Shown here: positions 2 to 60,307 of the stretch, piece by piece
How positions within the stretch are numbered: the first letter of the stretch is position 1
Layout of the letters: every line of letters begins with the position of its first letter
NCBI GenBank assembly: GCA_030295235.1
Contig: AP026136.1
Location: forward strand, 1,116,001 to 1,180,000
DNA: 64,000 nt
Direction of reading: 5' to 3'
Origin: Fistulifera solaris
Lineage: Eukaryota
Translations under genes and position numbers: made by a program
The notes under the pieces: generated by a model
Seen by the model: only the letters and a program-made list of their open reading frames with translations
What the model was told of the DNA's origin: nothing
Database searches by the model: none

Positions 2-1213
2 AAGAATGGCCCCAAACCCCCCAAAGTTGAAGTTTCGACAGAGGTGGTAAATGATAACCGTGACGAATTTGGAACGACGCTTGTTTCCCTCTACGACAAG
101 TACGACTTGGATTGGGCTACTCTTTCCGACGCTGAATCCCCTCAAAGCAAATCGCTACTTTCTGTGACTGGTGCAGCGACATACGAAGGTATGGCGACTG
201 CCAAGAAGGTTCAGCGTTACGCTCTGGGTGTTTTCTACTATTCGACATTCATGCGCGCACATGCCGAGTGGACCGACCCTACCGATTGGGTGTCTTCTCA
301 TGGGTGGTTGACTTCCGCAGATGAGTGCGAATGGGAGGGTATTGTTTGCGATAGTGCAACTGGAAAAGTCACCGGTATTCTACTGTCCAAACATGCGCTC
401 TCTGGTTATCTTCCTCTCGAGCTTGCTCTTTTGGACCAATTGCAGGAGCTCGATCTCGCAAGTAACTTTATTCATATGACTGAAAGTGAGCACCATGGAC
501 TCCGTGTCTTTGGCATGCTCCCGAAGCTTGTCAAACTTCAAATGGACGACAACTACGTAATGACGGAAGGAACTGGTCTCCCCTCTAGCTTTTCGAAATT
601 GACCAATCTGGAGCGCCTGTCTATGTCTTACAATCTTTTACAGGGAAACATCGATGGTGCTGTCGTGTCACAGATGCAAAAGTTGACTCATTTGGAGATT
701 GAATCAAACTATCTTTCGGGAGAAATCCCTGTCGAGCTTGGTCAGCTTCCGAATCTCTTCTACCTTTACTTGCGCCGCAACGCACTCACTATCGACCTGA
801 CTGAACTTTTTGTAAACCAGGTCGGTTCGTACAAGGAGATCTTCTCTCTCTGGCTTGATGACAACATCATTTCTGGCACTATTCCACCGGCCATCGGCCG
901 CTTGACCGGACTAGCGAGTTTGAGCATTACGAACACGACACTTGGCGGTTCTATCCCTTCCGAGATCGGGAACCTCTTTGACTTGCAAAGGCTCTGGCTT
1001 TATTCGAATGATCTCACAGGCAAGCTTCCGGATACACTTTCAAGCTTGGTGAACCTTCAAGTCCTCGAGATCTATAACAATGAAATAACGGGAAAAGTAC
1101 CAGAAGCAGTCTGTAATGCCGTTCAAACCGCCGATTACGATTTCCGTTCGATGATGGTGGATTGCAGTATGATCGAGTGCCCCGTGGGTACTTGCTGTAC
1201 AGAGTGTTACTAA
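2..1213 (+). CDS. Leucine-rich repeat (LRR) protein, 5'-truncated by the window edge
   Basis: Frame is open from base 2. It has a Cys cap (ECEWEGIVC), many LxxLxLxxNxLxGxIP repeats and a C-terminal CxxxxCCxxC. Confidence 0.9.
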   Translation, partial: KNGPKPPKVEVSTEVVNDNRDEFGTTLVSLYDKYDLDWATLSDAESPQSKSLLSVTGAATYEGMATAKKVQRYALGVFYYSTFMRAHAEWTDPTDWVSSHGWLTSADECEWEGIVCDSATGKVTGILLSKHALSGYLPLELALLDQLQELDLASNFIHMTESEHHGLRVFGMLPKLVKLQMDDNYVMTEGTGLPSSFSKLTNLERLSMSYNLLQGNIDGAVVSQMQKLTHLEIESNYLSGEIPVELGQLPNLFYLYLRRNALTIDLTELFVNQVGSYKEIFSLWLDDNIISGTIPPAIGRLTGLASLSITNTTLGGSIPSEIGNLFDLQRLWLYSNDLTGKLPDTLSSLVNLQVLEIYNNEITGKVPEAVCNAVQTADYDFRSMMVDCSMIECPVGTCCTECY

Positions 1214-1334
1214 ATCGGCTCTGTTTGAAAAGCATATCAAATTTTAGTTTTTCTTTATAAACAATAAACTAATTATCAGGAAACAGCTGCTTGCTTTTGT
1301 TAGCTAGCGTGGACAGCTATCTCTTTGTTGCGAG

Positions 1335-2705
1335 CTAGAAAATGTTGTGTGTTGGTGTATGCAAGAAACGTCTACAACCATGACGCATCTGGTACCGGTA
1401 CTTCCTCTGGTGGAATCTCTCCGCGCCGCTGACTCTGTCCTCCTTTTGACGCCGAACAATGGGATACAAAATGTCTTTTGCAAATCGCTGTAAAATATAC
1501 CCGGAAAGACCCCAAACGACATCCGGACCACCCGTAAATATAGGGGCAAATCCATCTCGGTGGATCCACAAAGATCGATCTAATAAATTTGAAAGAGGCA
1601 CTGTGAATACTTGCGCTACTTCCTCTGCATTTGGCAGTAAATGCTCGGGCAGCTCACCCCAATAGCATACCACCGGAGTGACCTGGAGGTACCATTAAAG
1701 TGTGAGAATCGCCTTTTCACACGTTGTTATCTTGTATGACGCACGATTAATACAGCAGTGAATACTCACCGCAATGTTCACAAGATGTTGTATATCGCCC
1801 CAGTTACACCGTAAAACACCCAATACATCGACAGGTTCATCCGGTAATCCATTGATTTCTTCTTTCATCTCACGTAGGCACGTACTCACAATACTCGGAT
1901 CTTGAACATCACACACCATTCCACCCGGCAGAGCAACTTCATCGGGATATGATCGTAAATGCGACGCCCGCTTCTCCAATAAAATACAAGGGACTCCATC
2001 AACCGTGCAAAGCGCAATAACCACACCCGCTCGTTTATCATGCGCTTGCGTTACAGTACGCGGCATTCGCATAAGCGCCTTCCGTATCAACTCCAAGTTG
2101 TTCCGATGCAGCGATTGTGTAAGATCGAGAATCGGCGGTGATGGTGCCCCTTTGGATGGCGTTTTCGGTCCATATCTTCGCTCTAACACATACCTGGGAT
2201 GATAAACTCGTAAAAAGTCACGCAAAGCATCCCACTTTTCTTCATCACACAGCATGGCGGCATATTGAAGAGCATCTTCTCTATCACGGAGCGCCGAAGC
2301 AATCGCCTTGACGGTATAGTTTTCACACATAATGAGCATATCGGTGGCGGGATCGGCATGTAGCACCCCCAATCGCTGTTGCGGCATACTTCCTTGCAAC
2401 TCCTGAGCCTCCATTCGCTTGAAAAGACGAGGCAGCTCATCGCCGTCCTTCTTGACATTATCAACAACTCGTTCTTTCCAAAATTCGTAATTTCTTTTGT
2501 CTGTAGAGAGATGGGCCAGTTGATCCGGCCACACACCTTTCCATAATCTTTGTGCGGTGGGTGTAGAGTTGGAAACTTCCGGAGGTTTGTCGAGAGAGTG
2601 CGGAGTGTAACTGGTCGAAGAAGAACACCGGACGAATCTTGTGACAATTCGTTCCGGCAAAGCAAGCCGCCACATCGCGTGCGAACGTCGCATGAAAGGC
2701 ATCAT
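1335..2705 (-). CDS. Nudix hydrolase (CoA-diphosphatase NUDT7/NUDT8/PCD1-like) with long N-terminal extension; 2 exons
   Basis: LLEKRASHLRSYPDEVALPGG motif and Nudix box (CLREMKEEI). GT-AG intron 1683-1769 joins VNIA to VTPVVC in frame. C-terminal EVAQVFTVPL and VWGLSG motifs. N-terminus resembles a mitochondrial presequence. Confidence 0.85.
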
Positions 2706-3246
2706 GATGACTCAAACTATTTGATTGTGTTTCTTATCTTGTTCCTGACGATTGAGTGTCTATAAAATGTATTCGGTTGATCAACAACAACGCAGCACCA
2801 TGCAATCAGAAATAAAATAAAATTAGTGCGAGCGCATTATAAAGAAGCCGTTGTGAGTTGTGAGAAAAAGACATGTCTATGTCGTCATCAATCACAATGT
2901 ACAATGTCGACCCACTCATGACAGATTTATCTAGGAAGGTGCGGGAAAAAGTGTACATTCACGTAGGCCCACGAAGAGAAATGTACCAAGCAGAGGTGCG
3001 TTCCCGTGTCTCCCAGTCGTGGGTAAACACTGATCTTTGTTTGTGTTTTGGCTATTCTTCTACACTATTCAAGCTAGCGGTATCCACAAATTATGTGAGA
3101 AACGTGCTACTTGGTTCGTGACTCGACTCAAAGCGGAGCACGACCCTTTTCAATAAAAAAAAAAAGCACGAAACATTTTATAATTTGCTGCTTTGATTGC
3201 TCTTGTCGTTCAACATTTTTCAGCTTGACTGCGATAGATATACGCA

Positions 3247-4039
3247 ATGACTTTACCTTTCCTTCTTTTTTCTCTCGCATGGATAGCGCCAACGGCGTTG
3301 TCGACGTATATGCTGGAACTGACTCCCGGAACGCGAGAATGCTTTTACACCAAGTTACCCGGGAGAGCGACCATTGTTAGGTACGTAAAATGGTTCCCTT
3401 TCGCATCGCATCGACGCATAGAGACTCTTTTACTAGATAAAAAGATTGAGACGTGATATGTAATGACGTTCATCCTTACGTCTGCCTGTGTGATATTTTA
3501 TTACTTTTTTGCAGCGGTAATTACGATATCATCGATGACGACATACCGGGAGATTATTTGAGTGTCACATTGCAAAATACACTGGCCGAAGACGGCAAGC
3601 GATTGTGGCACAATGAACCGGGATCGACGGAGGGGATTTTTAGTTTAACGGTCGATCGTGGCCTTCGATTGGCCTTTTGTTTTGAATTTCGAGAAATCAG
3701 TGATGATGAAACAGAAACGATCGTCGAACAATTGTTGATTGGATGGAATATTCGAGTGCACGCAATACCAAGAGAGTTACCCGATGGGGAAAGTGGCCCT
3801 GATACTGAGCGGGCCCGGCGGTTGTTGGAGAAGGCAGTGAATATTGAAATGGATTGGTCCAACTTGATGGATCATTTTGCCTTTTGAGGAGTCGAGAAGC
3901 GGTGCACATGAAACTTACCTCCGACATATTAAATCGCATTATGGGATGGACACTCGTAGAAGCCTTTGTGGTGATGGCCATGGCTTTCTTGCAAGTCATG
4001 TACTGGAAAAAGTTCTTCGAGCAGAGGCGGTATCTTTAG
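3247..4039 (+). CDS. p24/emp24/TMED family GOLD-domain cargo receptor; 2 exons, one apparent indel
   Basis: Signal peptide and ELTPGTRECFY start of GOLD domain; intron 3381-3514; C-terminal TM then QVMYWKKFFEQRRYL. Frame break at the T-run 3882-3885. Confidence 0.9.
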
Positions 4040-4638
4040 ATAATGACTCCAAAGAGCAGAAGTATTATCAGTGTCAAACAGTTGGCCAATACAACTAGAA
4101 TTTATTCTAATGCGCTAATAACATTGTAAAAACTCCTGAATAGTCTCGCCTTCGAACAAAGGGTCGCGATGCACGATCTGCCCCGCGCACATTGGGCTCG
4201 AACTCTAGGGAACTCCTAGAGAGCCTTGCCTTGAGAAAGATTCGACACAAGTTAGCAAGGATAACGCCGCTTTTTTTTCAAATAATTTGTCTGTAATGGG
4301 TCACGACAATCGCTTATGCATAAAATCTACCTCGTGACTGAATCCAGTCTTGATAAAAAGCGGTCAACACTTTTGGACTATAGTCGAAATTGTAAAGTGC
4401 ACGAGCTCACGAAGAGGTTTCAGTGTCATTTCACAATTAACAAATGTGGATCTGCAGATTCATAACCAGATACTAATGAAAGGAAAAATCATTTCAGCAG
4501 CGAGAAAGACAACGTTAAAATTCTGGAGCAGGATGCTCATGACTCGCCGCTAATCCAGTCTGGAAAAGGTCGCTTACAGACAGAGGCTATAGTGAAAACT
4601 GAGGTGTTGCACGGAACATCGCATTATATTACTACGTA

Positions 4639-4768
4639 GGGAGACTTCCGTTAGGTCTCCAACCAGGGTGAACCTCTTCCGATAGCTCTCCCGTTAGGAG
4701 AGACGTTAACTGACTACATTCAACTTTACAGTAGAGTACGCGCCATTGGATGTGGTACTAATTACTTA
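4639..4768 (+). repeat. Left terminal inverted repeat of the MULE
   Basis: GGGAGACTTCCGTTAGG...GTACTAATTACTTA, compared base by base with the reverse complement of 10362-10491: no mismatch. Confidence 0.98.
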
Positions 4769-4937
4769 AAGGCCTTCCATCCATCATTAGTTCTACTTAG
4801 GTCACGCACAATAACCGCACAATCGTTCGCGTTGTGCGTTTGTTCCGTTCCGACTGCCGACAAGATGATCAGAACGCTGCATTCCTTATTGTCATAGTTG
4901 CCCTTCCGTTCCTACTGTTGCTCTTTTACAACATTAA

Positions 4938-7810
4938 CATGTCGATCATTGAAACGAAGGAGCGACGATCATTCGTCACGATTATGCAAAAATATGGGGC
5001 ACTTCCTCCAACCGGTCCGTATGATTTTGAAAAGTTTCTCTATGACAAACCGATCCCTGAGGATGATCACGAGGAGCTTCTCCGCAGCATCGCTTTTGTA
5101 ATGCGATCGAAAGCTCTTACGAGATGTCAGCAAGCACGGAGAAAGCCCTTGCTACGTGTGCACTTGCTGCAAAACGTTCTCACTTAAGTTCAAGGAAGAA
5201 AACGGCGAACTTCGATTGCTACACGACCATCCTAGTACTAACTTCAGGCACAGTTTGTTTTGCACTCCAACAAACGACCTCCCAAAGGACTGCCGCAGAA
5301 AATCAATGATAGTGCAGAACATTCCTGCTGTTCAAGACTTCTTCAAAACATGCTTCCAGGCACCAAACTTCGACAGTCATGCTACTCGCAAGAATCTCAA
5401 CGCCGTCCTCAGGAAAGAGGGTTTCGACATCGAAGTTGGCCCGACAATGCATTCAAATCTCAAGAAACACTTCCGTGAGGTCTACCCGAAAGGATTTGTT
5501 GATGTACAATGAGCTGTTGGCCCAGTATCTTCGGAAATATGTCGAGCTAAATCCAAATGCCTCCGTCAATTTAGAAACTGACCAGAACTCATGCTTTTTT
5601 CGGTCAACTGTGTTCATTGAGAATGCCGCGCACTTCTTTAGAAATGCCTGCATTCCTGCAATCTTTTAGACGGAACACACATCCGTATACCCCGAACACG
5701 ATGGAATTGGAGTCCCGATCATAGGGGTCGATGGAAATGGAAGTAACATTCCACTTGGTTTTGGGTTGATTCCCTCGGAAAACAAGCAAGGGATGATATA
5801 TATCCTTCTCATGATGTATCAAGCTGGGTTCAATTTCGAAGAGTTTCCAGTATTCACTGACCGAGGACACATTCTCGCCGCTGTCCGAGCGTTGGCAGAA
5901 CATTATGGACTGGTTGTTTCCGTGAAGTATTGCTTGATTCATATTCTTCAAACATTTACCATCTATTCAATATCAATCAACGATCGCTGAGAGGGCAGAG
6001 CGGTCGCTTGGTTTATGCGCGAGATGCAAAGCTCCAGATGTTAACGCCTTCTTGGATGCTGCGAAGAAGCTTGTCAAAGCGCTTCCACAAATTGAAGAAA
6101 ACGAAACTCTTAGTACCGGTGCGCGAATTGTTATCTATGTTCTTGGGACAATTCATCCTACTCATTGGACTGTGTTTGGAAATACACCGAGTCAACATGA
6201 ATCTATGTGGGAGCCCCTATATTTTACCTATCTAGCTGAAGTGAATGGCTTCACAGAGATAAGTGGAGACGTCGGCGAATGGAGGTGGTTGCTCAACGAT
6301 CACGTGCCAGTTGGAAACAAGTTCCCTTTATATGGTTTCTGTTCAACAAATCATGTCGAATCGGCCCAGCAGTGGCTTCTACATCATGAAGTGAGGACTA
6401 ATACCCCTCCACTAGCCATTTCTAACTTTTTGATGGCGGCTGCCGAATCTCTTCGACAATTTCGAGATGAAATAACAACCAAATCTGCTAGGTTCCTCAC
6501 CATATACTTTCGAAGCTTGCAAGATACAGGCAATGAAGATCTAGATTTTGTAATAGAGGATGCTGAAGGATGCCCCGATGGCAGTTTGAAATTCAAATTG
6601 TACGCTGAAAAGCACAAGAAGACGGAGTATGTTACTTATGAACCCACGAGCACTCCGTCCCTGTACTGCTCCTGCAGTAGAACAGCGATGCGGGAAATCT
6701 ACTGCGGCCACATCAACCTTGTTTCACGCATTACAAGATCCTCAACTTGGCCCTCAATCCCACCCTCTGTGTTTTCGCAATTCTACGAAGAGTTTGGAAA
6801 AGTTCCGACAAGTGGTGATCGCCGGCTTCCTTACAGAGTTTCTTAACAACTATCCGCTGACTTGACGTCCCGGGATTTGGGGATATCAAGCTTGCTTATC
6901 AATCAGAAAACATTTATCCATCACCAACTTACACTGACAAGCTTAACTCGGGGAACAGAATAATCAGTAATGGTGAACCGGGACCACGTAAGTCAAAGAA
7001 AAAGAAGCAATCGGGCGCTGGAATCAGCACGAATGACAAAGGAGTATGAGCCAAGTTCAAAGAACAAGCTCAGTCGAAATAACGATGCAATAGCAGAAGC
7101 GATTGCCGCCGATGGTCTGTTTGATTTTGGGACCAAACCAAAGGCGGAACACATGCAACAGCTAGAATCAACTCTTGGACGAACGAGACGGCAAGCCCTT
7201 ACCTCGGCACTGCTTTCACTGCAGATCACCGAATCACACAATTCGACAGTGTCTGGACTACCTCAAAGATGATCGAAGGTACATGGATCCTGCATTACTT
7301 GAAACTGGCGCAATTCTGGTCAACCATTTCCCAACATGCGTCATTGACATGGATGCAGGAATTACTTCTGAAGATTTGGACAACGATGATACCTCCGGAG
7401 GACATGGCCTTCACAATATTGACAAGATTGGCTTAGTAGAAGACTCTGATGCAGCCAATGCCATTGTCCAGTCACGGATTTTAAAGCTTACTGGAGAAGA
7501 CGCTGCAGAAATTCACGCTGAAGACGACAACGAAAATAACTATCTTCTGGATATGGACCTTGCTCCGTCAGGTAGTAACCGAGATATTGTAGTAATTATT
7601 CGTGACAAGGATTACACGGAAAGAAGAAGTCACGAACAAGAATTGACCATGGTTGATGATGTCGAGGTAGGCATCCATGACGATTCCCGTCTGAACAGTG
7701 CACACTCGGGTCATCTGTCGACAATTCTAGAGGATGAAGATGTGGAACCAAGCACCGCACATAATGCTTTTGCCTCAAGTCCCGCGAACAACAGAATATT
7801 CAGTAAATGA
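4938..7810 (+). CDS. MULE DDE transposase with SWIM finger and CCHC knuckle (split over several frames)
   Basis: LDGTH (D at 5669), GVDGNGSNIPLGFGLIPSEN, FTDRG (D at 5859), CLIH (CxxH), STNHVES (E at 6358), SWIM CSC...CGH (~6667-6711), knuckle CFHCRSPNHTIRQC (~7211-7252). End coordinate is arbitrary: the frame may run on into the protease. Confidence 0.92.
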
Positions 7811-9329
7811 AATGCCAACAACTAGAACAAAGAGGAGATCCAAACAAGTAACGAATTTAAAAGCGCAGAAGGCAAGTCCATCTACCGCAAAGTCATCGAT
7901 ATTGAAGACAGCGACCGCATCCAGACCGAATTTGAAACCACCGCCGACCACAACAGCTTGTGCTTCCAGTCCAGCAACAACAGATTTTTCATTAGTCAAA
8001 ATGGCAACGAGAAAGAGGAAAACGGCCGAAACAGCCACCAAATCAAAAAGCTGAAGGAACAAGTCCCGCCACAACTGATTCGTCAATCTTTGAGAGGCCG
8101 ACCATGAAGAGTCAAAATCTGAAGCCACCACCTGATATCAGAGCTCATGCCTTGACTATCGAGTCTTCAATGAATGAGAATACAACACAAAAAGGAAAAG
8201 ATCGAAACTGACAGCAAATTCCAGAGCCAAAGGCCCGACTCATGCCCGTGAAAAAGAAGTTGAAACCGCCACCGATTGCAGAAGCAAAAGCAGGAAGTCC
8301 CGCCACAGCAGTTTCTTCCATAGTTGAGATGCCAACTATGAAGAGGGGTAATCTGAGAGCACTGCCAAGATCTCATTCAAACAGTCCAACAACCGAAGTA
8401 TCACGATTCCTGAAGATATGATTATAAAGATACCGAAGACAGAACCCACTAATGCAAGTCCCGCCCACGTCTGCTAGTGACGATTCATCACATGTATTTA
8501 AAAGGCGATTAGACATCCAAAAGAAGAATGCAAGTCCCGCCAAATCCGGTAATCTCAGTGACGATTCGTCGCATTTCCTGAAAATGCCGCTAGATCTGCG
8601 AAGAAAGAACTTGGCACAAAATGAAGCGCTCTCAAGTTCATTTTCAGTGGGTATTCCGAAAACCAGAAGAACTCAGAGCTATAACAAGTCCCGCTACTGC
8701 CACTAGTGGGACCTCATCACAATTCTTGAGAACACCCTTCGACCTGAGACGTAAGATTGTAGATCCCAGAAATGAAAATCAATTTTCATTACGTCGACAA
8801 CAAGTAAGGCAAATTGGAGTAGCCCCTTTGCAACCCCCAGTCATTACTGATGAACCATCAAAGATCGTATCCTATTTTTACGACACAGCTTATCCATTTG
8901 TGGGAACCATTGAGCAATTAAATTGTTTGGTTCAAGAACACGAGTTTGATATTCCAGAATCATTTACGGAAACGGAAACAAATGATTTAACGATGAAAAG
9001 AAGGGCTTCAACCCGAAAACGCAAGGGCGCAAACCAGCGAGGACTTGTGAGTGAGAACAATATTGCAATCCACGCAGCGGAATACTCTTGCAGAGACAGC
9101 AAAAGGAAAGAAGTGGAATAGAATCATTTATCACTGTAGGGACAAGAAAGAATGGAAACGATCTGATTTACAACAAAGAAGATGCCAGGGGATCTCTTCG
9201 GTCACTCCTTTTTGCAATCCAGTGCAAAGGGCGTTGATAAAGGTCGCTGAGTCGTCACGACCTGAAGAGGGAAAGAAGCATCATATCAAGGTGCTAGAGT
9301 GGTGCCACGGCATCCATAACCAGTGAATG

Positions 9330-9994
9330 CCTTGAAATTATGAACTCGCAATGTTATTTCAATGACGATTGTGAACAGTTTCCTTGAAAGCATAACAAGC
9401 AAGACCGTGAACGGATGAGGGAGTTATTGCACACCCGTCGTATGTCATGAGTAATCTGTGGGATTCCGCCAACCAAAATATTAAGAGAGAGGGTAGACTG
9501 CAGCTTAGTTCAGCGTTTGTGGCATTGAATTCTATGACAAAATCGAACAATTTGGGCATTCATTTATTCCCTATGTGCAAGGAGAGGCACTGGTGGTTGA
9601 TGGTGGTTGATGCCGATAATCGAGTTATTTATTCGCTCGACTCCCTCGAAGATCCGGACGATCACTACTCTAATGCTGTCTGGCTTTCAGGTTTATTTAA
9701 ATTGCGTGCGGTGAGGCAGCAATTAGAATGCCGTCAACAAGCGAGCAGCAGGAATCAACATTACCCGATTTAGCTCCGTGGGAATACCAAGAAATGCGTC
9801 TTCCCAATAAACTATTGCAACATGATGGCCATAGTTGCGGACCATATGTATGTTTTTATGCGGCGACAATTCTGAAACATGGTCGACGTGCCCTCAATGA
9901 GAGGACATGGTTCCTTGACTCTATTTCGGAGATTGGAGTCGGAGATGATCTCCGACCTTTTGTATTTGATGTTATGTTTCAATTGGCTGAATGA
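9330..9994 (+). CDS. Ulp1/SENP-like (peptidase C48) cysteine protease domain inside the MULE
   Basis: LFPMCKERHWWLMVVD (His), YSLDSL (Asp) and QHDGHSCGPYV (oxyanion Gln, catalytic Cys) occur in family order. One frame break near 9770. Start approximate. Confidence 0.88.
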
Positions 9995-10109
9995 CACGTA
10001 TAGAGTAATGTGTGATATTAATCAACCAAGTCTAGTTTGAAACTGAAATTGTGTAGATTGGGTTTTGATTATTTACACGAAGTAGTTTTCGACGAAAGCC
10101 TTGATCGGT

Positions 10110-10268
10110 GGAAGGTCACGTAGGCTGGGTTTTTTCTTTATTGGAAGGTCGCGCTCGCTGCATCAGGGTCACGTAGGCTGGTTTTTCTTTATTGACAATT
10201 GAGAGCGGTCGCGCTCGCTGACTTTTTCTTTATCAAGAGCGGTCGCGCTCGCTGACTATTGTTTATTG
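10110..10268 (+). repeat. Subterminal direct repeats of the MULE
   Basis: GGTCACGTAGGCTGG at 10114 and 10167; GGTCGCGCTCGCTG at 10147, 10207 and 10241; most followed by a TTTTTCTTTAT-like tract. Confidence 0.9.
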
Positions 10269-10361
10269 AGGATTTGGTTATCTTAGAGGGGTGATTCATG
10301 AATCATCCGGGACTGTCATTCATAAGGCTTTGTTACTTTATCGAGCAACCTAAGTAGATTC

Positions 10362-10491
10362 TAAGTAATTAGTACCACATCCAATGGCGCGTACTCTACT
10401 GTAAAGTTGAATGTAGTCAGTTAACGTCTCTCCTAACGGGAGAGCTATCGGAAGAGGTTCACCCTGGTTGGAGACCTAACGGAAGTCTCCC
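10362..10491 (-). repeat. Right terminal inverted repeat of the MULE
   Basis: Exact reverse complement of 4639-4768, followed immediately by the TSD. Confidence 0.98.
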
Positions 10492-10564
10492 TACTACGTA
10501 TTTGATATGATTCGACGACAACAAAAAGAGCATTATATTATACTTGAAACAGACCATCGCACAA

Positions 10565-11047
10565 ATGGATGATTCGACAACCACCAACGAACCACAGTGG
10601 ATTCAGCATCTACCAGAAGCTCTGGGCATCCGCAAAGCCGTGCAACAGAGTAAATATCGATGGTGTGTACGAGAATCGGCCATGTGGGGGATTGCCACCG
10701 GTACGGCCATGTCGTTGCACCGACTTCGCATGCGATCGCCGTGGGCTATTAACGCCGGCTTTCTCAGTTTCTTTACCGTATATACTGGGTCGTATTATTT
10801 TTGTGTGAAACGACGCGACTATAAAGAACAAGTTATTGAAATGATGATGAAATTGAATTCGTTTCAAACTGCAGCGGATATGCCCGAGCCCGTGCCTGTC
10901 GATGAGAATCATCCGTTTGTTTCTCCCGAAGGTGATATCCCTGGAGAGCGACAATATGTCGCTAATTTACCGGAGCGAAAGGAATGGCAAAAGCAGCTTC
11001 CTACACAAGATGCGGCATCGATATTTGTAGAAGATAAAAGGAAATAG
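10565..11047 (+). CDS. COX20: Cytochrome c oxidase assembly factor COX20-like
   Basis: CVRESAMWGIATG...HRL, second TM ending YYFCVKRR: the two-TM, two-Cys layout of the Cox20/FAM36A family. Confidence 0.7.
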   Translation: MDDSTTTNEPQWIQHLPEALGIRKAVQQSKYRWCVRESAMWGIATGTAMSLHRLRMRSPWAINAGFLSFFTVYTGSYYFCVKRRDYKEQVIEMMMKLNSFQTAADMPEPVPVDENHPFVSPEGDIPGERQYVANLPERKEWQKQLPTQDAASIFVEDKRK

Positions 11048-11132
11048 TCGTTAAATGTGAGCGTGCAATCAAAAGGACGCAACAAGGCGAAATCTATTGT
11101 ACATAAGCATAGTGCTATCCTTTCTTCTTCCA

Positions 11133-12496
11133 TCACCTTGTGTTGGCGACAGCCACATCGAAATCTCGAGCATTCTGTGCGTAGCGTGCTTTTCGTTCCA
11201 TCCGTCGGGACAAATCGTAACGATAATTGACCATGACACCGAAACTGTTTTGTTGTCCGCGTGTAGAAAGATCCGCTTGTGTCACAATACGAAGGACTTC
11301 CGCTCCATTGCTCAAATGAAACCGTGCAACTGGATCCAGTGGCTTGTAGCTTTCGTCTGGCGTCGTTTCGTCAACAATATACTGTGTGGCGAGTTGATGA
11401 AGTCGTGTCTCTCGTTCATTCACGATACTCTCTGTAGCTGTACTTTCCTCGTCGTCTATGCTTTGATCGAGCTGTATTGTCAATTCGTGTTCGAAGGCAG
11501 GATGCTTCGCCTTGAGCCACTTTCGAAAATGGGGCATGGGGGATAGCGTCACAAATTCTTGCAAGCAAGGAAACTCCCCTCGCAACAAATTGACCGTCTC
11601 TGATATTAGCACTTCTCCGAGTCCAATCCCCGCCAAACCGCGTTCCAAGTTGCTTATTGAATAAAAAGCCGCTACCGTGGGTTGCTCGGTGGGTGGTGCC
11701 TCATGAATTGCACGCATACTGTTGGGAATGTCGGTCGCTTGGAGCGAGACATGAATGACCACGAGCGGCCGATCGAGCAAAAAGGGATGCACAAGAGCAT
11801 ACACTCGTCGATGTGGACCAAAGCGGTTGTGTAAATCCTTCCAACCTTGTACCGGATGAACTGCTTCTTTTCGTACAATCCGTTCAATGACGGCGGCCGG
11901 TGTCTGATCGTAGCGAATGCGTTGCGCAAGCAAGACGGACGGAGAGAACCACATGTTCAGGACGCGTCGCCAGTGTTGATCGAGTCTCGTAATGCGCTCC
12001 TGGAGGGTATAGAAATCGCTGTCATTGTTCGACTGTGATCGTTTTAGAAATGCCAAGTACGTTTGCATATCAGCACGGGAAGCCAAAAGAAAGCGTAAGG
12101 CATCCGCCGTGGCCGTTTCCAAAAAGCGATCGATCAGATTGGAATAGGGAGGCGCGGAAATTTCACTTTCAAAACTTTCGTTTGCCAAAAATGAATAATC
12201 TCCCGTCGTTGACAAATATCATGTATTTGGGACAAGAGTGCCGGCAATTCTGTGTATTGTCGAGTTACGAATGTAATATTGTCCCGCTGATGATCCGAGG
12301 GTTTCGACGGATGGTAACGAGAGTCTTCAATTAGCTTCTGAAACGACCGCAAGAGTTGTGTTGACGATGATTCATTCGTCGCACTTTGCCAAGTTTTGTC
12401 GTCGTGAGAAGATATGAACCGGAAAAGAGGCTTCGTTCGAACGACTTTGTGGTTGCTACACCTTCGCAAAAGAAAACGTCTAAAACTGGAAATCAT
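11133..12496 (-). CDS. MLYCD: Malonyl-CoA decarboxylase, mitochondrial presequence; one apparent indel
   Basis: EAVHP, FYSISN, GIGLG, FVTLSPMPHFRKWL, DPVARFHLSNGA and GVMVNYRY motifs. The two ORFs join if one base is restored in the run at 12187-12191. Confidence 0.93.
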
Positions 12497-12830: not shown

Positions 12831-12961
12831 CAAATACTACGGAGTACATCATATAAAAAGGCGGGAACGCATGAAACATGAATGCAATAAAATAATTACA
12901 AACGCAAATACTCTCTTCGTTGTGAATCCTTTTATTTTATTGTTGGTTCATTCGCATCAGA

Positions 12962-14499
12962 ATGAAAATAAGTTACATCTTTCGTTTTTGCATATTCGTT
13001 TTTATTGCAGAAACCGCATCTGCTTGGCTTTCCCTGACCACGAGGCAGAAACGTCATTTTCTTGCCTCCTCCACGCCTTCTTCTTCTTCTTCTTCTTCTT
13101 CTTCAACTCCCATGTTCCCATCTATTACTAATAACAATAATCCGCTTCCCAATCTACCCATTCCACCGTCCATTTGTTCGACAGAACCAGGTACATGGGC
13201 GTATGATACCATGAGTCGTCGAGTCGACGCAGAAATTTTGCAACGGACCTGGGACGACAATCAACATCATTGGAGGCAATGGAGTACGGAGCATATCGAT
13301 GTCATAAAACGATTTGAGTTATTACGAAATGAGTTGCAGAATGCCGCGACGACTCCTTTACAGCATTTGGAAAAACCCGTAATTACTTCATCCCAACGAG
13401 AAAAGGAATATCAGGAATGGCAACAAATCTTGGAGCCCTACGTCTCCAACAAAGATACCTGGCTGACGGCACCGTGGATGGTGACGGAATTTTTGGTCTA
13501 TCGGAAACTCATGCAGGCCATCGGATACTGGGATCCCCAATCTCCAGGATATCAGCAGGATCCCTTTCGAGCACAGAAACAAGCTGGATTGCATTCGTCC
13601 ATTGCTTCGGCGGAATCCGTTTTGGCCAAATTGTTTTACCAAACACCGGAAGTGTTCCACGAGGAATCACTAGAAGCTGGTTTGGCACTCGCCACAAGTA
13701 TTGCTTTATGGGGTAACAAGATGGATTTGTCGTTATGGCCCGCTGACAAAGAACATCGCAACAGTGATATCTTTTCCAAGATACTCGACCAGGCCAGTCA
13801 GAATTTATTGCACGATGATACACAAGTCCTCCGTCATCATTGTCAGATGTTAAAGGAACGAGGAGGAGGACAAGTGGATATCATTGTTGACAATGCCGGA
13901 TTTGAATTGGTGACAGATTTAGCGCTCGCTCATTATTTGATCGAATCGGGAATTGCGACGACGGTTACTTTTCAACTCAAATCGCATCCGACATTTGTGT
14001 CGGATGCCTTGGAAAAAAGGATTTGCTGGAAACCCTGGCCTATTACGAACAGTTGGATGCCGCAGAATTTCCGGCTTGTCACGCGGCTGGTCAAAAATGG
14101 CGTCATTTTTTGAAAGAGGGACAATGGAAGTGTCACGAAGACAACTTTTGGGCGCAACCCTATGCCATGTGGGATATGACCGAACCGTTGCGATCGGATC
14201 TGGTCCAGCGGTGTGATTTAGCGTTTGTCAAGGGCGATGCCAATTATCGTCGTCTTCTGGGGGATCGGATCTGGGATTATACGGCGCCTTTCCAAGATGT
14301 AGTGGGCGCGTATTTTCCTTGTCCAGTGTGTGCCTTGCGAACACTCAAAGCCGAAATCGGATGCGGTATGGATGCGGAGCAAGTGAACCGGGCACAAGAA
14401 TTGGATGATCAGTGGATGGTGAATGGACGATTTGGTGTGGTGCACTTTGGTACGGGCACCCATGAAAGGGAAGAGCATTCTAAGGCGAGAAATAATTAA
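12962..14499 (+). CDS. DUF89/ARMT1-like damage-control phosphatase, probable bipartite plastid presequence; one apparent indel
   Basis: LWGNKMDLSL, IIVDNAGFELVTDL, KSHPTFVSD, FVKGDANYRRL and LRTLKAE motifs. Signal peptide ends ASA-W, then a Ser-rich tract. Frame break at A-run 14013-14018. Confidence 0.92.
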
Positions 14500-58889: not shown

Positions 58890-60307
58890 ATGCGACGATT
58901 TTTACTGCTTTATTCGATTCTGCACGTCTGCATGATCCGTCAAACAATGTCTCTAGCGGCGTCGAAATCACCCAAGAATATTGTTGTCATCGGAGGAGGT
59001 ATTCAAGGTACATCGGTGGCCTTTGCTCTAGCGGAACGAGACTTAAAAGTAACCGTTCTTGAAGCCGTCCGACCTGCCTCGGCAGCATCTGGCAAGGGAG
59101 GAGGATTTATGGCTCGATCGTGGGGCGACGGAGGACCTACTGAGGGATTACATCATGTGGCATTTGATTTGTACGAAACATTAGCTCCGAGTCTAGGCTG
59201 CACCTCCTATCGCAAGCTTCCTGTTCTGTCGGTCTCCCCGGGCAAATCTCCCTTAGATTCGGCCACAAAGAAACGCCACGGAAATATGTTACCATCATGG
59301 TTGGATGGAAACTTGGGTCGGGTATCCGTCATGGGCAGTGGCGATGATACGGCGCAGATTACACCCTCCGAGTTTGTCGAGAAAATGTTAGAAAAGCATG
59401 CCGACCGAATTCATGTTGTCAAAGGTACTTGCACGGGTGTAACTTGCACCGAGCAGAATCAAGTGAGCAGCGTCGAGTATAGCGATGAAAACAATAAAGC
59501 ATGTACACTGACTGCGGACACAGTCATCGTGAGTGCAGGGCCCTGGTCTTGTGCGGCGGAGGACTGGTTTGATGGTGCGCTGAAACTCCCGATGGAAGGC
59601 GTCAAGTCAACCAGTATCGTCTGGAAGAAGCCGGAGTCGATCGAAACTGTGGATGCGACGGCACTCTTCTGTGGCGAAGATAGACGATTTGGAACTCATT
59701 GTATGTATGCGTCAAATGTATTGAATATTATTCAAGCAATTTGATATGCTCACTCATTCCTTCATCATCTATTTCAGTGGAAGTGTATCCTCGACCGAAT
59801 GGGGAAATTTACATTTGTGGTATTGGAGGGTCTGACTACATTTCTACGGAAGAATTGAAACAGGGGGCGTTTCGAAACGAATGCAATGCCAAGAATGCGC
59901 GAGTCAAGGCTGCGGTAGCGAGTTTTCAAGAAATGTCTTCCACGTACAGACAAAATGGAGAGTTAGAAAGGCAACAAGCTTGTATGCGACCCTGTCCTCC
60001 CGACGCGATGCCCTATATGGGTGTAGTACCTGGATATTCGGGAGCCTACATTAATGCTGGTCATAATTGCTGGTAAGTCGTGCCATGACTACGTCGTGTG
60101 TTGCTACTGCCGGTAACTCAATTGGTTGACGGCAGGGGTATTGCCTGGGCACCAGCATGCGGACAAGCGATTGCAGAATTAATCCTTGATGGTGAGAGCA
60201 AATGCGTTGACCTTTCTCCTTTTGACCCTGCTAGATTTACACCTGCTGCGCAACGGGGTGAACGAGGACGAAAACGACAAGGGACAAGTGTTGGAGAGCA
60301 ATGGTAA
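58890..60307 (+). CDS. FAD-dependent oxidoreductase (DAO/glycine-oxidase family, TDA3-like); 3 exons
   Basis: VVIGGGIQG, ASGKGGGF, EVYPRP, QACMRP and AGHNCWGI; introns 59701-59777 and 60073-60135. Confidence 0.93.

Follow-up and report, generated by a model that had tools for sequence, protein, structure and literature searches.

A probable autonomous Mutator transposon encoding a fused transposase and C48 protease in Fistulifera solaris

The window analyzed here is a stretch of 64,000 nucleotides of Fistulifera solaris (GenBank assembly GCA_030295235.1, contig AP026136.1, positions 1,116,001 to 1,180,000 of the forward strand), and all coordinates below are positions in this window. Positions 4639–10491 of the window are read, with a probability of roughly 0.75, as a copy of an autonomous DNA transposon of the Mutator type (Mutator-like element, MULE). 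The copy belongs to a recently amplified family, and the family encodes one intron-less protein of 1,685 amino acids, in which a transposase is joined to a C48 protease. The parts of this protein follow each other in the order of an N-terminal Cys/His-rich stretch, the DDE/CxxH catalytic core, a SWIM motif and a CCHC zinc knuckle, a long linker, and the C-terminal protease domain.

The element proper is 5,853 bp long and forms one unit bracketed by terminal inverted repeats (TIRs), which are flanked on the outside by the two copies of a target site duplication (TSD).

4630–4638, no strand: left copy of the 9-bp TSD, TACTACGTA, with the identical nine bases at 10492–10500
4639–4768, + strand: left TIR, 130 nt, starting with GGGAGACTTCC
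10362–10491, − strand: right TIR, 130 nt
10492–10500, no strand: right copy of the 9-bp TSD, as read from the sequence

Both TIRs are identified by a repeat finder, by the count of their terminal 30-mer and by self-BLAST. The repeat finder reports a single perfect pair of inverted arms, at 4636–4768 and 10362–10494 (133 nt, 100% complementarity). The TIRs themselves are three bases shorter because these three bases are contributed by the TSD, which is partly palindromic (TACGTA). The terminal 30-mer has two exact occurrences in the window, with none expected from 100 shuffles, and no second copy of the element was found in the window by self-BLAST or with this 30-mer. The first-pass annotation of this DNA had described identical 130-bp TIRs and a perfect 9-bp TSD, and the repeat finder and the end sequences, with TACTACGTA on both sides, agree with it. 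Long TIRs and a TSD of 9–11 bp are characteristic of MULEs, and the perfect 130-nt TIRs and 9-bp TSD of this element fall within that description.

The boundaries were also compared with Logan contigs from four sequencing runs, laid over positions 3800–11300. At the left end, contigs of three runs (X1, X2 and X3) depart into three different and unrelated flanks, at positions 4635, 4638 and 4639. The left boundary is therefore fixed independently of the repeats, and other insertion sites of the element exist. No contig bridges 4638 to 10501 as would be expected of an empty site, and the 30-letter loose ends are compatible with a second haplotype either with or without the element.

The coding region occupies most of the space between the TIRs.

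4939–9994, + strand: single transposase–protease open reading frame (ORF), with a length of 1,685 codons where intact and with 25 frame-shifting indels and one 3-nt gap in the window copy

In the window, overlapping ORF pieces in all three frames, all on the + strand, extend from an ATG at 4939 to a stop at 9992–9994. The first-pass annotation had noted such overlapping pieces on one strand, from 4938 to 9994. It had further suggested that they might represent one polyprotein of ~1,700 residues, and this suggestion is supported by other copies. A public protein search with the longest window piece finds an uninterrupted gene call of 1,685 residues (P0001) on a 9,217-nt contig, with 99% identity. 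The 90% cluster of this protein holds P0002, the same protein begun at an upstream GTG (window position 4834), giving 1,720 residues, again without interruption. The ORF is thus continuous in P0001 and P0002 and is not stop-riddled in all copies. The public gene call can begin at this GTG because there is no stop codon between 4801 and the ATG. The NCBI-sourced record of P0002 is 5,853 nt long, exactly the size of the element, and the element may already have been deposited as a record of its own.

When P0001 is aligned with the window DNA in a way that allows for frameshifts, the 25 frame-shifting events and the 3-nt gap are seen, and only 6 of the 1,685 residues are mismatched. The span from ATG to stop is 5,056 nt in the window, compared to 5,058 nt expected. 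The intact protein is therefore colinear with the DNA, and introns are ruled out as the cause of the frame changes. The first Asp residue of the DDE triad sits beyond one of the frameshifts, where the window frame reads IF*TEHT (the asterisk being a stop) and the intact protein IFLDGTH. An alternative genetic code was considered for the TAG codon at 5667 and is ruled out, as a 1-nt indel accounts for this codon.

The motif residues were read on the intact P0001 and then mapped to the window. Two alignments are used for the comparisons, one of 13 fusion proteins at ~20% identity (A1) and a smaller one (A2). A separate comparison is made with P0003, a protein of 1,434 residues encoded by a single ORF in a 4,774-nt record, which has the same order of parts and shares with P0001 43% identity over residues 16–851 and 35% over residues 1294–1685. 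It was the only protein of a length similar to P0001 that turned up in a word-index search. The parts of the protein are located as follows.

5141–5270, + strand: Cys/His-rich N-terminal stretch (residues ~68–110), with the pattern C..C...C...FRHS..C kept between P0001 and P0003
5660–6360, + strand: Mutator DDE core, with D244 (5668–5670), D307 (5859–5861), C331/H334 (5931–5942) and E474 (6358–6360), all five invariant in the 13 fusion proteins
6667–6711, + strand: SWIM-type motif CxCx9CxH (C577, C579, C589 and H591), invariant in A2
7211–7252, + strand: CCHC zinc knuckle CX2CX4HX4C (C758, C761, H766 and C771), invariant in A2 and recognized at the motif level only
7790–8800, + strand: repeat-rich, basic linker rich in Ser, Pro and Thr, with direct repeats D1 and D2, where P0001 and P0003 do not align
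9300–9916, + strand: Peptidase_C48 (Ulp1/SENP-like) domain, with H1551 (9588–9590), D1568 (9639–9641) and C1634 (9836–9838), identified by Pfam, profile comparison and invariance

The signature of Mutator transposases is a DDE triad with a CxxH motif located between the second Asp and the Glu, and this arrangement is observed here. The DDE triad, the CxxH and SWIM motifs and the zinc knuckle had all been recognized on one strand in the first-pass annotation, and each is present in P0001 and can be placed in the window. The N-terminal Cys/His-rich stretch is a candidate DNA-binding zinc finger, judging from its pattern of residues. The profile of A1 also has a weak match (E value of 0.014) to the zinc knuckle of RBBP6 (chain 2ysa).

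Relatives of the transposase part were collected with phmmer, using residues 1–797 of P0001 against 1.84 billion representative proteins. This search gives 306 matches with E values of 0.001 or lower, 126 of them at or below 1e-10 and 22 at or below 1e-30. The 41 listed matches with at least 600 residues were then scanned with Pfam, the 109 shorter ones listed being left out. At E values up to 0.001, the MULE model is found in 10 of the 41 and the SWIM model in six.

Several scores weigh against the assignment of P0001 itself to these families. The MULE model (PF10551) aligns over nearly its entire length (profile positions 2–99 of 99, residues 241–338 of P0001, E value of 0.014), but its score of 16.2 bits is below the cut-off of 27.6. 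The SWIM (PF04434) and zf-CCHC models have no match in P0001 at E values up to 1. The placement among the Mutator transposases rests instead on the motifs and on the homologues that do pass, since four of the 41 exceed the MULE cut-off, the best being P0112, with 45.7 bits in the equivalent region. Together with the 9-bp TSD, the 130-nt TIRs and the multiple insertion sites, the DDE/CxxH arrangement bears out the earlier classification of the element as Mutator-type.

The C-terminal domain is recognized directly in P0001. The Peptidase_C48 model (PF02902) matches residues 1541–1645 with 28 bits, compared to a cut-off of 20.7, while the ORF pieces of the window taken alone reach only 18.9 and 14.5 bits. 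Among the profile scans that the first-pass annotation had proposed for this protein, the one for C48 is thus positive, that for MULE remains under its cut-off, and that for SWIM gives no match in P0001 itself. In Ulp1-type proteases, the catalytic His and Asp residues are 17 positions apart and are followed by Gln and Cys. The spacing between His1551 and Asp1568 is 17 residues, and the His, Asp, Gln and Cys residues reported earlier are all present, aligned to the SENP2 pattern HW...LDS...Q..G.DCG. H1551, D1568, Q1628 and C1634 are invariant in A2, and H1551 and C1634 also in A1.

Comparison of the A1 profile with solved structures places the domain close to the SUMO proteases. The E values are 1.6e-24 for SENP2, 4e-24 for SENP1, 1.3e-20 for Ulp1 and 3e-19 for SENP7, and 2e-6 for the NEDD8-specific SENP8. 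In addition, the C-terminal 286 residues have an Atlas feature score of 0.95 to SENP-like and Ulp1 clusters. These clusters are commonest in Oomycota, as are those of the queuine tRNA-ribosyltransferase of the host. They are the only leads to the host group that the sequences give, and they point to stramenopiles in general, not specifically to the diatom-like host that the first-pass annotation had suggested.

The association of the two enzymes is not limited to this family. Among the 41 scanned homologues, 11 carry a Peptidase_C48 domain (E values up to 0.001), and 10 of these exceed the cut-off. All 11 have at least 1,000 residues, and they make up 11 of the 20 matches of that length among the matches listed. 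Nine residues are invariant in the 13 fusion proteins of A1, seven from the transposase part (D244, D307, E474, C331, H334, C577 and C589) and two from the protease (H1551 and C1634). That both active sites are kept across such deep divergence argues for a protease that functions within the transposase protein, and against passive cargo. The cluster annotations of the relatives read only 'hypothetical protein' or 'Ulp1 family protease'. The element in the window belongs to a clade of transposase–C48 fusions seen in environmental assemblies.

Other searches returned little. A word-index search for short proteins resembling the protease part, which could be stand-alone proteases, gave one fragment of 74 residues only. 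No relative was found by scanning metagenome contigs with P0001 or viral contigs with A1. A metagenome scan with A2 found three distant loci (L001–L003), and TIRs are absent on all three contigs. At L003 (positions 62–5968), a MULE-like part is accompanied by a C48 domain that spans a single in-frame stop at 3245–3247, with at least 850 more in-frame codons beyond it. In two transposase–C48 fusions of ~2,000 residues, P0023 and P0025, the two enzymes are separated by an additional Tudor domain of the PTM/DIR17-like kind, scoring 34 and 37 bits. Its presence is in keeping with a function directed at chromatin.

The contigs also give an indication of the abundance and age of the family. In X1, the word depth of the contigs is 397–459 in the element and 21–29 in the flank (14–22 times), and in X2 it is 84 and 8–13, respectively. 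Depths summed over contigs do not count copies directly, but as a rough reading they fit some 15–20 near-identical copies. The raised depth, together with the three foreign flanks at the left end, indicates that the family has been mobile. The element differs from the multi-copy consensus by ~0.15% in substitutions. The flanks in X1 (3863–4080 and 10838–11300) exist in two versions of similar depth, one with no differences from the window and the other with 17 differences in 218 nt, which suggests a highly heterozygous or hybrid genome. The alleles of the second version reappear in the wetland run X2. With only ~0.15% separating the element from its consensus, the amplification is recent relative to the divergence of the flank haplotypes. 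The first-pass annotation had called the element very young. A recent amplification of the family is consistent with this small difference and with the intact TSD, but the argument from TIR identity has no dating value. Unlike long terminal repeats, in which identity serves as an insertion clock, both TIRs are copied from the parent element.

The frame breaks bear directly on whether the window copy is functional. The X2 contig that covers most of the element (5,421 nt, 4971–10391) shows 8 substitutions and 36 gaps relative to the window, and four X1 contigs, with 5,049 nt covered, show 8 substitutions and 33 gaps. At least the 12 indels listed, beyond which there are a further 22, are identical in the X1 and X2 contigs. 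Such an excess of indels over substitutions, about four to one, is the opposite of natural decay and is typical of consensus errors in long-read assemblies. It is on this ground that the breaks are attributed mostly to assembly errors. Contigs of the unique flank with no substitutions (records 1 and 18) have one gap each nonetheless. Moreover, a single-copy host gene in the window, similar to ARMT1 (12926–14496), is split between two frames, and the switch coincides with a run of A near 14015–14023. The Pfam profile positions on the two sides of this break are contiguous (207, then 210), leaving no space for an intron, and the split is probably an assembly indel error, which calls for caution with the assembly as a whole. 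Base-calling errors at methylated CpG sites are a known pattern of nanopore sequencing. Among the 25 indel events, 13 are located within 3 nt of a CpG, compared to a background of 29% (binomial p of 0.014), and several others are in runs of T or A. If the enrichment at CpG does reflect nanopore errors at methylated sites, the element would be CpG-methylated in the host.

It would be a different matter if the indels were real and the window copy were a dead, frameshifted relic, which could then move only with a transposase supplied in trans by intact copies, or not at all. This outcome is considered unlikely, although two observations lean toward it: the 25 frame-breaking events in the ORF, and an indel density of ~1 per 150 nt in the element compared to ~1 per 800 nt or less in the unique flank. 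The enrichment of indels at CpG is only modest, and X1 may be the source sample of the window itself and hence not independent. Contigs also drop rare variants, so that a rare variant copy would be invisible in them and the window copy may carry real frameshifts. Decay of this kind is, however, difficult to reconcile with 33–36 indels and only 8 substitutions, with perfect TIRs and TSD, with a single-copy host gene that is likewise broken at a homopolymer, and with the concentration of the indels at CpG and in T or A runs. The breaks are thus judged, with good confidence, to be mostly an assembly artefact rather than decay, and the window copy itself may well be intact. Its earlier description as a complete element is accordingly uncertain: the 25 frame breaks speak against it, and their probable origin in the assembly speaks for it. 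For annotation, it should be kept in mind that the element resembles a stop-riddled relic in this assembly even though the ORF of the family is intact.

Alternatives for the protease concern how it is joined to the transposase and what it cleaves. MULEs of plants often capture genes, as described in part of a 2026 review (PMC13317346), and the unit could in principle consist of a host Ulp1 gene captured as cargo in the manner of a Pack-MULE, or of the ends of two elements around a host gene. This is highly improbable given the perfect TSD around the whole unit, the one contig of another run that spans 4971–10391 at uniform high depth, the protease in frame with the transposase, and the recurrence of the fusion, since 11 of the 41 distant homologues have it and the catalytic His and Cys are invariant. 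Another function for the C48 domain would be to release the transposase from the 1,685-residue precursor instead of acting on SUMO conjugates of the host. Proteases of the same clan cut viral polyproteins at Gly-Gly, and the design of the protein, a single long ORF in which a disordered linker separates the two enzymes, would suit such a role. However, the closest relatives in sequence among solved structures are the cellular SUMO proteases SENP1/2 and Ulp1, and the sole Gly-Gly (TSGGH) in the part of the linker that can be aligned with P0003 is not kept there, which makes a processing function improbable.

A somewhat less remote alternative, though still an unlikely one, is that the protease is active on a modifier other than SUMO, such as NEDD8, ubiquitin or a ubiquitin-like protein specific to the lineage, or that its specificity for SUMO has been lost, as has been argued for the Kaonashi proteins of plants. 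Two features of the protein weigh against a firm assignment to SUMO. P0001 alone is very far from the solved SUMO proteases, with an E value of only 0.96 to SENP2. The clamp Trp residue, usually found in the motif WLND, is replaced by Tyr (YFND), so that the substrate need not be SUMO. In addition, the ULPs of plant transposons were judged to be further from true ULPs than the deneddylase DEN1 is, in the portion of PMC6117577 that covers them. In comparison, the E values of the family profile for SENP1/2 and Ulp1 are lower by about 18 orders of magnitude than that for SENP8, and SUMO or a close relative remains the preferred substrate.

With the element read as an autonomous MULE, the following mechanism can be proposed. 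A cut-and-paste transposase would bind the 130-bp TIRs, possibly through its N-terminal Cys/His-rich part, excise the element and reinsert it by cutting the target with a 9-bp stagger. Tethered in this way near the element, the C48 domain would release SUMO, or a closely related modifier, from proteins located there or at the double-strand break, and candidate substrates are chromatin silencing factors, repair factors and the transposase itself. Removal of SUMO at these places would favor transposition. Such a role of the protease as a deSUMOylase that promotes transposition, in general terms, is plausible but tentative, being drawn from sequence comparisons. It is doubtful that the more specific version would hold, in which the tethered protease is a counter-defence that strips SUMO from the silencing or repair machinery of the host, as an ancestral and conserved strategy of a clade of protist Mutator elements. 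Should it be true, the family would offer a tractable system for asking why transposons carry SUMO proteases. It has near-identical and apparently recently mobile copies, a single intron-less ORF and conservation of both catalytic centers, and, if the host can be cultured, it is suited to a direct test of the role of a transposon-borne SUMO protease.

The linker, of ~500 residues, is a fast-evolving and probably disordered tether. Its rapid evolution is indicated by the fact that it cannot be aligned even with P0003, a relative at 43% identity. Residues ~950–1290 of P0001 contain about eight degenerate repeats, each with SPAT..., a hydrophobic patch and then a basic cluster, and there are runs resembling nuclear localization signals.

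The remaining features of the element are found in the subterminal regions.

4769–4938, + strand: 5′ subterminal region and leader ahead of the ATG, free of stop codons from 4801 to the ATG
10114–10260, + strand: short 3′ subterminal repeats, with three copies of GGTCGCGCTCGCTG and two of GGTCACGTAGGCTGG

None of 100 shuffles reaches three matches for the 3′ repeats. Each copy of GGTCGCGCTCGCTG and GGTCACGTAGGCTGG is followed by a T-rich run, and there is no comparable array at the left end. They are putative binding sites or a putative 3′ end signal.

A second form of contig, observed in X1 and X2, tracks the left end of the element (4739–5000) and diverges at 5000, and its continuation has no counterpart in the window. 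This form probably represents a sister family with shared termini or a derivative that is non-autonomous. Toward each end of the element, the contig depth rises about twofold.

A COX20-like ORF (10501–11044) follows the element, and only 65–73 bp separate the right end of the element from the first in-frame ATG of this ORF, at 10565. Its Pfam Cox20 score of 24.3 bits falls slightly short of the cut-off of 25. The element thus likely lies within the promoter or leader of this gene. A Pfam scan of 41 host ORFs of the window finds ordinary, compact eukaryotic genes and enzymes, and none of them is a marker of diatoms or plastids. A gene for an oxidoreductase of the DAO family has a GT...AG intron of ~77 nt (59703–59779). 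The host therefore has short spliceosomal introns, and the ORF of the transposon has none.

Ulp1-type proteases recur in unrelated transposons, namely Mutator, Ginger and Crypton elements, and the present family can be compared with each of them. Bao, Kapitonov and Jurka (2010; PMC2836005) report, in the text available, an Ulp1 domain encoded in Mutator transposons of hydra, lancelet, Arabidopsis, maize, rice and melon, and a figure legend there refers to an alignment of the Ulp1 domains of 'Mutator TPases'. A Mutator transposase protein that includes a C48/Ulp1 protease was therefore already described. Those elements come from another host group, and the present one has SWIM and CCHC motifs and a linker of ~500 residues, a distinction that is drawn from the descriptions and not from a comparison of the sequences. 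The same source describes Ginger1 of Hydra, which likewise has a one-protein transposase with a C-terminal Ulp1 (or OTU) domain, a length of 3–7 kb and TIRs of 44–270 bp. Its DDE transposase resembles the integrase of Gypsy, in contrast to the Mutator DDE/CxxH/SWIM arrangement and 9-bp TSD of the element in the window.

In plants, Arabidopsis and other eudicots have the Kaonashi elements, also called KI-MULE or KIU (Hoen et al. 2006, as cited in PMC13317346 and PMC6117577). In the portions of these two sources that deal with them, they are also MULEs with an intact Peptidase_C48, long conserved, and the authors of these sources connect them with an escape from silencing. However, they are non-TIR MULEs, and their Ulp1 domain is in a separate VANC-like gene, one of three. 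The present element has perfect 130-bp TIRs, and its protease is the C terminus of the transposase ORF, so that it is not of the Kaonashi type. The role of the Ulp1 domain in MULEs is still termed unknown in the part of the 2026 review (PMC13317346) devoted to it.

Among stramenopiles, the diatom and Phytophthora groups of MULEs of Dupeyron et al. (2019; PMC6446971) have SWIM and/or CCHC motifs and TIRs of 67–124 bp, as given in the main text. 'MULE-Diatoms' (TIRs of 123–124 bp, one ORF, SWIM) and 'MULE-Phytophthora_2' (SWIM and CCHC) are similar in design to the present element. No protease is listed for them and the word 'protease' occurs zero times in that text, the comparison being one of descriptions only. 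The MULE mobilized in Phaeodactylum tricornutum (Abbriano et al., bioRxiv 10.1101/2023.01.02.522487) is an active stramenopile element, with 9-bp TSDs, long TIRs and a MULE and SWIM transposase, according to the sections available. It differs in having a length of 3.7 kb, TIRs of ~200 bp, a separate ORF for a UBR-type E3 ligase and no fused C48 domain. The size, the TIRs and the second ORF rule out that the two are the same element. The CryptonF and CryptonS elements of oomycetes, as far as covered in the relevant part of PMC3212892, also carry an Ulp1-related C48 peptidase in mobile elements of stramenopiles, but they rely on a tyrosine recombinase, and their peptidase is in many cases a further, separate protein.

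Full-text searches of the literature, with supplements, Repbase and Dfam outside their scope, found no report linking a diatom or stramenopile MULE with Ulp1/C48. The novelty is nevertheless lower than the first-pass annotation had assumed, as Mutator elements with Ulp1 (in the text of PMC2836005 available) and oomycete Cryptons with C48 (in that of PMC3212892) are already in print. The fused transposase and SUMO-type protease of this element is a fresh example of a combination already known from plants and animals.

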